Shown here: positions 40,074-42,074 of the stretch, piece after piece
Layout of the letters: every line of letters begins with the position of its first letter
How positions within the stretch are numbered: the first letter of the stretch is position 1
Origin: a virus
Lineage: Duplodnaviria > Heunggongvirae > Uroviricota > Caudoviricetes
DNA: 64,000 bases
IMG/VR virus record: IMGVR_UViG_2645727901_000008
Reading direction: 5' to 3' (one strand)
Translations under genes and position numbers: made by a program
Notes under the pieces: model-generated
Seen by the model: the letters and a program-made list of their open reading frames with translations, nothing else
Told to the model about the DNA's origin: nothing
Databases searched by the model: none

Positions 40074-40097
40074 AAAAAAGCCCACCCGAAGATGGGC
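40074..40097 (-). terminator. Intrinsic terminator inside the non-coding region
   Basis: Minus strand: GCCCATC-TTCG-GGTGGGC followed by TTTTTT. Confidence 0.6.
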
Positions 40098-40678
40098 AAA
40101 TACGCTACATCTCACACAAGAAAGAAGCCGACTGCCTGAGCTGGATTCACTTTCAAATGCCCGCAGAAAGGGAACACAAGTCGGCTTCTTTCTTGATGCG
40201 GCACTCTCTCCGCCCGTCACCGTTCTGTCTCGGTTGTCGCGTTTGCCACGCCAGCCGTAACGAGGTTTAAAGTCTTTGCACGTTTCCATCACTCGACTGC
40301 CGTCTGTGGCTGTTCGTTGCAGCGGGGGTGCCTCCCCCTGGGGATATCCCCGGCCTTACCCCATTCTTTCAAGACACAATGCAAGGCCGCATCCGCATAG
40401 GTGCATTACCGCAACATTAAGGAGACTTAGGGCAAAAGGTAATCGCCACAAAAAAAATCCCTATGCCTCCTTAATGTTGAGGATGTGCATTGATGATGAT
40501 TCGATGCGGCGAGTCCCGTTACTCTCTGCCGGACCATCATCAATGAACATCTTAAAAAGACCTTCCGTGGCTCAACATGTCTTGTCGTTTACTCCGTAAA
40601 GTGCTCTCTCTGAAACCACTTTACGCACTAAACCTGCTGAACTTTGGCTTGCTCGGTGCCAAAGCGAGTCCCTGTATG
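40098..40678 (-). ncRNA. Candidate ~0.6-kb structured non-coding RNA (motif/promoter at 40679-40695 to terminator at 40074)
   Basis: No credible ORF. Perfect stems of 17 bp (40117-40133 / 40179-40195), 13 bp (40412-40424 / 40467-40479) and 11 bp (40488-40498 / 40535-40545). GGGGG-TGCCT-CCCCC at 40324-40338 and GGGGATATCCCC at 40340-40351. Confidence 0.35.
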
Positions 40679-40695
40679 TATGTAATTTTCTAACA
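40679..40695 (-). promoter_or_regulatory. 17-bp motif copy (candidate operator) at the head of the non-coding region
   Basis: Minus strand TGTTAGAAAATTACATA. Confidence 0.45.
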
Positions 40696-40834
40696 CTTTA
40701 ATTTGTTATTTGCTGGTGGGCGAACAACAACCAATAAGTGACTATCAAGCCCAGCAAGCGAAATGTGGCAACGCTCCACCAGCAAGGAAAATTCTAAGTT
40801 AAGTTACTCTCACAATCAATACGTTCGTTTAGTG

Positions 40835-40851
40835 AAATTAGATTTCTAACA
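40835..40851 (-). promoter_or_regulatory. 17-bp motif copy just downstream of the 40854 stop
   Basis: Minus strand TGTTAGAAATCTAATTT. A 10-bp stem (40710-40719 / 40776-40785) lies between this copy and the next. Confidence 0.45.
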
Positions 40852-40853
40852 TT

Positions 40854-42074
40854 TTATTTCCCATAAAGATCTTCTACGCCCCCATTCTTCTTGTCCCATT
40901 CGTTAGCCCACACCCGGCAGGCATCAATAATTTCTTGACGACGGTCGCCCTGCATAAAGGGGATGCTTTCATGAAAACTACTTGGGATACAGGCCACGCT
41001 GAATACGGTATCAAACGCAGTCTGTTTGATAGCTTCCAACGTCTCTGGGCGCATTTTCAATTCATCGATCGGCGCATCCTTAGAGTCCATAATCCGGCGA
41101 TGCAGGCGCGGGAAATCAGTCTCCAGGTACGCCATAATTTTATCTGCCAGGCATTCGTCTATATCGGTATTCCAGTCCGTTTCGAAGCCGGGCAGGCGAT
41201 AGTAAAGCGGCGTTCCCCATACTGATGGGATCACATCCATCGTCAGCAGGCGGTTGGTTCTAATTTGTTGATGGTAATTAGCCGTCAACAGAGCTTCACC
41301 ACGCTGACCAGTCTCCGCAACCAGACCATGCGGGTACTCATGGATATAGGCAATAGCATCCACCCCGTCATACATGAGCGGGAATGTCTCTGGCCTTTGT
41401 CCCATACCACAAGCGCGGTTCAGATCATGACCAAGCTGTGAGCACTCTCGTTTCAGCGTTTCAATAATGTTCTGCGCTGTTGCTAACTTTTTACGCAGTG
41501 TGACGCCTTCGCCTTGATACTTAATGCATTGCTGATTCAGCTCTGTTAAACGCTCTTTTAGTTCCCGACGCTCTCTTTTCAGCGCACGGTTATCCTTCTC
41601 CGCAACATCCAGTCGTTTTGACAGACTGGCTGGATAGTCTTTTTTGTAACGACTCAAATCGGCTTCTGCGGATTTGCGCAGTGTGTTTGCCTGTTCAAGA
41701 CGCGCTTCCAGATTACCGATCTCACTACGCATATTCGCGGCAAATTGATTAACAGCATTGCCAAGACTTTCAACTGTCGCTGATACGCCTGTGACTTGTG
41801 AAAAACGGATCAAGCCATCATTAACGGCTTGTTGATATCCCTCAAACTGATCCACCAGCTTGTTGTAATCAACCGTCCCTTCCTCAAGTAGCTGGTTGAT
41901 CTCCGCGACCAGGTTATCAGTAGTGGCAATGACGCTCTCATGTAACCGTCTGGACAGGTCATCCCCCGGATTCCGCTTTTGAATAAGGGCGATCTGTGTC
42001 CGCAGCGTTTCAATCGCGGCTGAGATGATTTCCAGATTAGAAGTATCAGTTTGTTGACTCATTGCAGTTCCCAT
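40854..42074 (-). CDS. Hypothetical protein, N-terminal coiled coil plus a C-terminal globular domain
   Basis: Start taken at MGTAMSQQ (42074) or MSQQ (42062), because the longer track ORF runs through a 17-bp motif copy at 42086-42102. Confidence 0.4.
   Translation of the reverse strand: MGTAMSQQTDTSNLEIISAAIETLRTQIALIQKRNPGDDLSRRLHESVIATTDNLVAEINQLLEEGTVDYNKLVDQFEGYQQAVNDGLIRFSQVTGVSATVESLGNAVNQFAANMRSEIGNLEARLEQANTLRKSAEADLSRYKKDYPASLSKRLDVAEKDNRALKRERRELKERLTELNQQCIKYQGEGVTLRKKLATAQNIIETLKRECSQLGHDLNRACGMGQRPETFPLMYDGVDAIAYIHEYPHGLVAETGQRGEALLTANYHQQIRTNRLLTMDVIPSVWGTPLYYRLPGFETDWNTDIDECLADKIMAYLETDFPRLHRRIMDSKDAPIDELKMRPETLEAIKQTAFDTVFSVACIPSSFHESIPFMQGDRRQEIIDACRVWANEWDKKNGGVEDLYGK

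Follow-up and report, generated by a model that had tools for sequence, protein, structure and literature searches.

A conserved non-coding leader of hairpin cassettes upstream of a tmRNA-like RNA and tRNA genes in a D6-like phage genome

In phage lambda and in Stx phages, the leader between pR' and tR' runs from a phage promoter to an intrinsic terminator and gives a short non-coding transcript, known as lambda 6S RNA and StxS, respectively. In Stx phages this leader lies directly upstream of phage tRNA and cargo genes, for which read-through is required, and the terminated leader acts as an Hfq-binding small RNA (sRNA). The immunity of phage P1 involves an asymmetric 17-bp operator which is present at many dispersed sites; in the P1 annotation, the bivalent C1 operator Op72, the promoters P1ban and P2ban and a "dicF-like region" precede trnA-trnT...tciABC-trnI-ban. 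Here a leader at the corresponding place was analyzed in 64,000 nucleotides of a virus of the class Caudoviricetes (IMG/VR record IMGVR_UViG_2645727901_000008). This whole stretch is called the window, and positions are those of the window. The leader is the minus-strand unit 40860-40074, and it was compared in an alignment of 29 sequences (alignment A1) whose members fall into about five lineages, most of them being 92-99% identical. Related loci are referred to by L numbers.

The leader is a real, conserved, non-coding and largely RNA-structured unit, and is best regarded as a novel variant, longer and modular, of the known layout in which a repressor-controlled leader is followed by a terminator and tRNA genes. 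With moderate confidence, it is further read as the C1-controlled untranslated first part of an early operon which would hold mostly RNA genes; the leader would mostly terminate, would partly read through, and is probably processed into small RNAs. Between 39600 and 40900 the window shares 94% identity with Escherichia phage D6, which is distantly related to P1 and exists as a plasmid prophage. On the minus strand a pmgS-like gene (40854-42146) is followed by the leader, by about 460 nt of non-coding DNA and by the genes for tRNA-Arg, tRNA-Tyr and tRNA-Thr (39613-39365), after which come tRNA-Ser, tciA/tciB and tRNA-Met.

In its map position, and in having a repressor-controlled promoter followed by a non-coding leader, the locus resembles the leader of the P1 ban operon. 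The same terminator (GCCCATCTTCGGGTGGGC and a T run) is followed in both by the same 460-nt block and by tRNA genes, and some D6-like lineages carry the P1 module in addition. In contrast, the P1 leader is about 175 nt long and does not resemble the 0.6 kb described here in sequence; the operator is ATTGCTCTAATAAATTT in P1 and TGTTAGAAAWYTAATTT in the window, and the gene upstream is dmt in P1 and pmgS here. P1-type phages are homologous only from 40100 downwards, the similarity breaking exactly upstream of the terminator. Compared with the pR'-tR' leaders, in which the promoter is constitutive and read-through is brought about by the Q antiterminator, the promoter here carries repressor operators, and the leader is three to four times longer and modular. 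We know of no Q-like factor for this leader. A further likeness is to DicF and PasA, sRNAs excised from long transcripts of prophages; it would share with them a long precursor, non-coding or polycistronic, processing by RNase (here predicted) and a U-tailed 3' end formed by an intrinsic terminator. The P1 annotators label the corresponding segment "dicF-like", whereas no match to the Rfam DicF model (RF00039) was obtained at E<=1 in 36000-43000 of the window or in the P1 locus. PasA arises from a longer transcript, cleavage of which forms its 5' end (bioRxiv 10.64898/2026.05.13.724894).

Two tandem copies of a 17-bp motif had been reported at the start of the leader in a first-pass annotation, and both are present as claimed (Op1 and Op2, Table 1). 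Motifs resembling TGTTAGAAAWYTAATTT occupy 14 dispersed sites in the window, some of them as bivalent pairs of overlapping inverted copies (2176/2189 and 16195/16208); nine sites lie within three mismatches of the motif, where 0.28 would be expected. The window encodes a homologue of the C1 repressor (31907-32941), 90% identical to D6 orf1 ("similar to P1 C1"), with the motif 12 nt upstream. A bivalent site precedes the homologue of hrdC (1257-2162), in the position of Op68 in P1, one copy lies upstream of pmgS, and the two copies of the leader occupy the place of P1 Op72. The orientation of the motif matches the direction of the genes downstream. Based on its dispersed and partly bivalent copies, its sites at c1, hrdC and ban/tRNA-type operons, and the C1 homologue encoded in the window, all of which are features of P1-type operators, the 17-bp motif is a D6-type C1-repressor operator, to which the homologue is predicted to bind. 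Outside the leader, the copies were located at 2176-2205, 15558, 16195-16224, 19544, 30479, 31879, 42086, 43129, 53036 and 54243. Op1 is unchanged in all lineages and ends 15 bp before the -35 hexamer every time. The distance between Op1 and Op2 is 150, 156 or 161-163 bp, depending on the lineage; looping of the repressor through helical phasing of the two operators was considered, and is not supported because of this variable spacing.

The sigma-70 promoter between the operators (TTGATT, 17 bp, TAGAAT) is the sole promoter-like site in 39400-41100. Both hexamers and the 17-bp spacing are retained in all 28 sequences which cover it, including lineages of about 80% identity, while the sequence of the spacer varies; transcription is predicted to start near 40784. 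Op2 overlies a second candidate promoter, which is good in other lineages (TATAAT in the S. dysenteriae plasmid and TATAGT in D6, just after the motif) and poor in the window. The 10-bp stem described between the two motif copies has its arms at 40710-40719 and 40776-40785 as stated, but what forms them is a pair of Chi sites (GCTGGTGG) in inverted orientation. The window contains 44 copies of Chi where 1.7 would be expected (25-fold). The arms of the pair are invariant where the 56-nt interior has been replaced (L007, L008 and L018), and the fold is weak (z = -2.4). The Chi pair is a signal in the DNA, and could also form a 5'-terminal stem in the RNA. Another close inverted Chi pair is found at 48986-48993 (-) and 49020-49027 (+).

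At the 3' end, the intrinsic terminator was confirmed on the minus strand. It has five G-C pairs in its stem, a UUCG loop and six U residues, and it pairs in 100% of the cells of the 29 sequences, with stem variants of U.G to C-G and G-C to G.U and with UUCG, UCCG or UUAG as the loop. The homology between P1 and D6 starts exactly at the terminator. The terminator had been placed just before the tRNA genes, but some 460 nt of conserved non-coding sequence (39614-40073) intervene. The U run is immediately followed by a tmRNA-like (transfer-messenger RNA-like) element, so that the terminator divides the leader from a further RNA gene and not from the tRNAs. No promoter-like site was found between the terminator and the tRNA genes by sequence scan. 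The 3' end of the leader (...GUAGCGUAUUU-GCCCAUCUUCGGGUGGGC-UUUUUU) has the stem-loop, the U tail of at least six residues and the preceding U-rich strand of an Hfq-type 3' end.

The helices listed for the interior of the leader were verified at 40117-40133/40179-40195 (17 bp), 40412-40424/40467-40479 (13 bp) and 40488-40498/40535-40545 (11 bp). The 11-bp arms lie within 40477-40503/40530-40556, and the 13-bp arms are embedded in a 45-nt imperfect repeat. GGGGATATCCCC was located at 40340-40351, and the hairpin GGGGG-AGGCA-CCCCC (RNA sense) at about 40324-40338. Single hairpin domains fold with z from -4.8 to -6.0. Covariation among relatives was looked for using the minimum-energy fold of the window sequence itself as the test structure. 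Base pairing was kept in 90.6% of cells, compared with 38-47% with slid partners, and double changes occurred in 34 pairs against 16-25 in the slid controls; the observed values were reached in none of 500 shuffles. The helices thus keep pairing through compensatory changes across the 29 sequences.

The strand on which pairing is maintained was judged from single changes in the Watson-Crick pairs of the window. Over the whole region G.U was produced in 33 columns and A.C in 22 (p = 0.18). The ratio is 22 to 6 downstream of about 40560 and 11 to 16 upstream of it, so that the evidence for a minus-strand RNA covers blocks B to D and the terminator, and not the promoter block. In the promoter-proximal pair of hairpins at 40582-40670 there is no strand bias (six G.U and nine A.C), and constraint at the RNA level is therefore not established there. 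In the 11-bp domain 90% of cells pair, U.G variants are valid on the minus-strand RNA only, and the nested stem is CGGC/GCCG in the window and CUGGC/GCCAG in the lineages of L003 and L007. The 13-bp domain pairs in 98% of cells, with double changes in three pairs (A-U to G-C); its inner stem TAGGG/CCCTA is replaced elsewhere by CAGAG/CTCTG with an unrelated loop. In the IMG/VR contig L028 the segment homologous to 40412-40482 between the 13-bp arms is exactly inverted, the hairpin being preserved. Hairpin D is changed on both sides in 7 of its 17 pairs while the inner loop UGCGGGC is kept. In the outer stem of L007, CAACAUAC.../...GUAUGUUG replaces CAAGAAAG.../...CUUUCUUG, which amounts to three compensatory pairs and one U.G.

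The region had been described as a discrete, stem-rich and highly structured RNA of unknown function or a long regulated leader, as opposed to junk spacer. That it is not junk spacer is borne out, but part of the stem evidence is a DNA signal (Chi, operators). The hairpin domains are rich in stems as claimed, but one cassette (40205-40314) is unstructured. The promoter, both motifs and the terminator are kept in every lineage, but the body between them is a mosaic of cassettes and not a single discrete RNA family. By BLAST and the 29-sequence alignment, the blocks were found to differ in phylogenetic range and to have been gained, lost or swapped. Hairpin D is present in all D6-like lineages and is much altered in L007 and L008. 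In L003, L004, L024 and L041, hairpin D and the terminator are set apart by an inserted 120-nt copy of the module that forms the "dicF-like" leader of P1; L007 and L008 have a related P1-like module and lack module C. An Rfam scan of the leader (E<=1, and E<=10 on 627 nt) gave noise only (miRNA, snoRNA, STnc240 and MicA-type hits of 11-25 bits) and no DicF, riboswitch, ribozyme, intron or c4-type RNA, but one cassette belongs to a known sRNA-like class (STnc100-like) and is not wholly unknown. Antisense targets were sought by comparing the leader with the remainder of the window for common or complementary 12-mers. Nine matches were obtained against 4.7 expected; as six of the nine are the operator motif, no target emerged.

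The cassette in question is the core, which is almost invariant across all lineages. Based upon its predicted architecture, it is a divergent STnc100/PasD-like element, made up of a closing helix (GUUGCGG/CUGCAAC), a small 5' hairpin, GGGG-AUAU-CCCC and GGGGG-AGGCA-CCCCC. When 40314-40416 was aligned with STnc100-like copies, they shared the closing helix, a UGGUGAAU-type 5' motif with its small hairpin (UUGCGGU(G)AAUGC...GCG) and the GGAGGCACC hairpin at the 3' closing strand, whereas the interior hairpins differ and the Rfam STnc100 model (RF02076) does not match the core at E<=10. A custom covariance model (R1) was built from six STnc100-like copies, with the leader copy excluded. It detected the core with 32.7 bits (E of roughly 3e-6) and the leader copy in D6, L007 and L008 with 30-38 bits, on the operon strand every time.

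Three further STnc100-like copies lie downstream in the window (Table 1). The one before tciA is matched by RF02076 at 38594-38714 with 38.9 bits, below the gathering score of 47; such matches before tciA were also found in P1, L003, Mixta and L020, and a similar copy precedes tciA in D6. The AGGCA-loop hairpin had been said to recur with covarying stems, and this is the case. The window has exactly three hairpins with this loop and at least four pairs; they lie on the minus strand at 40333, 38610 and 37438 and have the stems GGGGG, CCUGG and GGUGG. Between the three downstream copies both the closing helices and the AGGCA-loop stems covary. STnc100 has been linked structurally to the Hfq-bound prophage sRNA PasD, and PasA and PasC loci lie near TerB genes (bioRxiv 10.64898/2026.05.13.724894). 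tciA is a TerB homologue, and the link of prophage STnc100, PasA and PasC loci to TerB is thus paralleled in this operon.

Module C has no thermodynamic structure (z = +0.35) and no match in Rfam. Its small terminal hairpin has stems which covary as read by eye (UUUCG/CGAAA, GCUCG/CGAGC, GCGG/CCGC). In a Pantoea plasmid (L009) module C lies upstream of a tRNA-like sequence and tciA; in a Mixta chromosome and in IMG/VR contigs it comes after a cI-like repressor gene, where the leftward early transcript apparently starts. The tRNA-like sequence of L009 (1761-1859, minus strand) scores 45 bits in Rfam and is not called by ARAGORN; it has an apparent insertion in the anticodon region and is located between module C and a terminator upstream of the tciA-like gene. 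In Mixta mediterraneensis (L014), a lambdoid prophage has about 1.1 kb without long open reading frames (2510-3670) between the cI-like gene and the next gene. Module C and, behind it, an STnc100-like element lie within this stretch, so these RNA cassettes are also found in a context other than that of P1.

The following course of events is proposed. In the lysogen, the C1 homologue would bind the two 17-bp operators which bracket the sigma-70 promoter, Op2 overlapping the second promoter in some lineages. Upon derepression RNA polymerase would start on the minus strand near 40784 or near 40670 and would synthesize a 0.6-0.7-kb non-coding RNA of exchangeable cassettes, namely two long hairpins, the STnc100/PasD-like element, module C and hairpin D. 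Most polymerases would stop at the terminator and release a stable RNA, which would probably be cut at the long perfect helices and at single-stranded linkers. Long perfect helices are typical substrates of RNase III, so smaller RNAs are probably released; one of these would be a 3'-terminal RNA of the Hfq-sRNA type, consisting of hairpin D, the U-rich linker and the terminator. Read-through would express the tmRNA-like RNA, the tRNAs, the further STnc100-like elements and tciA/tciB. If this is true, the first product made after the repressor is lifted would be a structured RNA and not a protein, and this RNA would be built from cassettes which also circulate in lambdoid prophages. The leader provides defined candidates for phage sRNAs and a natural system for the exchange of sRNA cassettes before a constant terminator. 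For P1, it raises the question of how the terminator in the leader of the ban/tRNA operon is passed.

Several observations weigh against this proposal. Both strands of the full 711-nt RNA fold equally well (z = -6.7 for the minus and -8.8 for the plus strand), as palindromes would, and energy alone does not choose the strand. Since the test structure was derived from the window, its advantage over the slid controls is inflated, and since the alignment holds only about five lineages, mostly 92-99% identical, its cells are not independent. The test of G.U against A.C is not significant for the whole region, and the 22:6 partition was picked post hoc. The near-invariant core and module C are conserved with hardly any covariation. 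Model R1 is built on six sequences and its E-values are rough, and the second promoter is weak in the window. As P1 lacks these cassettes, they are not needed for the function of the operon. The start site, the efficiency of termination, the processing and an action in trans are all predictions from the sequence.

Alternatively, the leader would act purely in cis, its cassettes, and in particular module C with its small purine-loop hairpin, driving read-through by modifying RNA polymerase or by alternative folding (put/nut-like antitermination or attenuation) without any RNA acting in trans; such a device may set when the tmRNA-like RNA, the tRNAs and tciAB are expressed. The strong terminator stands within an operon in which the genes behind it lack promoters of their own, and by its annotation P1 must pass it to express ban. 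In unrelated temperate elements (the Mixta prophage and the Pantoea plasmid), module C is found at or close to the 5' end of early transcripts under repressor control, and ends in a 4-5-bp hairpin in which the GAGAGA-type loop is fixed while the stems covary. However, a boxA-like sequence was not seen, no N-like protein is encoded nearby in the Mixta locus, and inspection by eye gave no alternative pairing of the terminator arm; in addition, P1 and the lineages of L007 and L008 keep the terminator without module C, and the module is without an Rfam match. The purely cis-acting device is considered unlikely. The conservation could also reside in DNA-level signals, with operators, the Chi pair and palindromes serving as sites of binding, recombination or replication and the transcript being incidental. 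The operators are DNA sites, the supposed 10-bp stem consists of Chi sites in a window 25-fold enriched for them, perfect palindromes fold equally on both strands, the loop inversion in L028 is a DNA-level event, and G.U is not favored upstream of 40560. On the other hand, G.U is favored 22:6 on the minus-strand RNA downstream of this point, and the U.G-containing helices of the terminator, of hairpin D in L007 and of the 11-bp helix in L003 would have C.A mismatches on the other strand. Stems covary while loops are replaced, the core matches an sRNA-like family on the operon strand only, and neither iterons nor AT-rich origin-like features were seen. Conservation of DNA signals with an incidental transcript is judged improbable.

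Very improbable is the suggestion that the region encodes small proteins or leader peptides, such as a GUG AUG frame at 40292 or the 11-codon frame of module C in Pantoea and Mixta. Absence of a credible open reading frame had been noted before and holds, in that no frame is conserved and Pfam and PHROG scans of the leader gave no matches; the longest frame is not the 85-codon one named at the time but a plus-strand frame of 107 codons (40276-40599), which is intact in none of 26 relatives. The 85-codon frame is open in about 19 relatives, and MMQT(V/A)KGVKTR* stands in register in module C of Pantoea, Mixta and L020. Nevertheless, only 4 codons of the 85-codon frame are left in 14 D6-like sequences and 34-38 in a further two; the frame also crosses hairpin D and the terminator, has its start region replaced in L005, and lacks a convincing ribosome-binding site. 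In a six-frame comparison of the 26 relatives all other frames are of 38 codons or fewer and are broken in many, and no open reading frame stays open in frame across the relatives. In keeping with the preferred reading of an untranslated leader, no RefSeq annotation underlies it in 99 E. coli plasmids, and it is likewise without annotation in about 110 PLSDB plasmids.

Table 1. Features of the leader and of the adjoining operon (positions in the window)
Feature	Position	Strand	Basis or distribution
Op1, operator-like 17-mer TGTTAGAAATCTAATTT, predicted site of D6-type C1 repressor	40835..40851	-	motif copies, synteny
Sigma-70 promoter, -35 TTGATT (40814-40819), 17-bp spacer, -10 TAGAAT (40791-40796)	40791..40819	-	sequence scan
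Two inverted Chi sites GCTGGTGG, 40776-40783 (-) and 40712-40719 (+)	40710..40785	.	exact match
Op2, operator-like 17-mer over second candidate promoter	40679..40695	-	motif match, lineage comparison
Promoter block A			present in all lineages
Block B	40623-40316		D6-like plasmids and S. dysenteriae and E. fergusonii plasmids (L007, L008)
Two hairpins, 40642-40664 and 40587-40633	40582..40670	-	z = -5.1
11-bp-helix hairpin domain with nested stem	40477..40556	-	z = -4.8
13-bp-helix hairpin domain, inner TAGGG/CCCTA stem	40405..40486	-	z = -5.9
Near-invariant core, divergent STnc100/PasD-like element	40312..40418	-	lineage conservation, covariance model
Module C, ends in small hairpin with GAGAGA-type loop	40205..40314	-	about 80% identity to Pantoea and Mixta leaders
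Hairpin D, 17-bp perfect stem, inner stem-loop	40117..40195	-	z = -5.2
Intrinsic terminator, 7-bp stem GCCCATC-TTCG-GGTGGGC (40080-40097), T6 (40074-40079)	40074..40097	-	sequence scan
tmRNA-like element (outside the leader)	39888..40071	-	sequence comparison
STnc100-like copy abutting 5' end of tRNA-Ser	38911-39052	-	model R1
STnc100-like copy about 10 nt upstream of tciA start	38588-38719	-	Rfam sub-threshold and alignment
STnc100-like copy about 110 nt upstream of next ORF (open reading frame; start 37306)	37417-37538	-	alignment

The tmRNA-like gene next to the leader is more surprising than the leader itself. Its tag frame (39981-40013) reads ...UAAAU GCA AAC GAU GAU CUG AUG AUG GUA GCG GCC UAA (ANDDLMMVAA*), with a resume codon GCA, a 10-codon tag and pseudoknots downstream. 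The segment 40071-39888 matches P1-type phages (P1, P7, SJ46) and, at 68-88%, unrelated virulent phages (Ackermannviridae, Schitoviridae, Drexlerviridae and others), where it is never annotated. At least 140 loci of this family were counted in IMG/VR or GenBank. Without exception the frame in these spans 10 codons and fits AN[DE]...[AV][AP]*; the codons vary synonymously, and 17 tag variants are present among the loci listed. The crossing helices of the pseudoknots have double changes in 4 of 4 pairs, and 91% and 81% of the cells are paired; the covariation score is 0.29 compared with at most 0.20 when slid, and is reached by none of 500 shuffles. In each phage tested, the Rfam tmRNA models match at the same place with 15-33 bits, below threshold, the score coming from the tag region with the pairs of the tRNA domain deleted. 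A tRNA-like domain (acceptor stem with G3.U70, T arm and CCA end) was not found by eye, and ARAGORN made no tmRNA call in the window or in the 140 loci. The possibility that the terminator hairpin is the acceptor stem of a permuted tmRNA-like gene (7-bp stem, then GUUUUCGUC resembling a D-loop region) was rejected on the grounds that no T arm precedes the hairpin, that the homology to other phages begins only after the U run, and that phage STGO-35-1 carries a promoter in its place. In two papers on tmRNA databases, the phage tmRNAs listed are confined to those of mycobacteriophages, Bacillus phage G and a few others (PMC4131195, PMC11915505). A literature search on the P1 transcriptome or tmRNA-like phage RNAs found nothing relevant.

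The tmRNA-like gene would bear on how phages handle stalled ribosomes and is probably the larger prize. A more far-reaching and doubtful suggestion is that about 40790-37300 is a repressor-controlled, almost protein-free operon for an "RNA toolkit", which would reprogram or protect host translation early, with the tmRNA-like family as a new class of trans-translation RNA. The toolkit may then contain new trans-acting or decoy RNAs (the hairpin cassettes, module C and the four STnc100-like elements), the tmRNA-like RNA, with a selected tag and pseudoknots but no recognizable tRNA-like domain, and swappable tRNAs.

D6-like phage-plasmids are common in E. coli, Salmonella and Shigella. The 0.6-kb leader was found in about 110 PLSDB plasmids and is carried by 99 of 5426 complete E. 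coli genomes, every copy being plasmid-borne. An origin of the 0.6 kb from a chromosomal prophage was ruled out, there being no chromosomal match in the 5426 genomes. The tRNA genes which follow the conserved leader vary. They are Arg-Tyr-Thr in the window and L003, Asn-Thr in D6, P1, L005 and L007, Asn-His in L006 and Arg-Thr in L008. As the set differs while the flanks stay conserved, the tRNA genes are swapped as cassettes.

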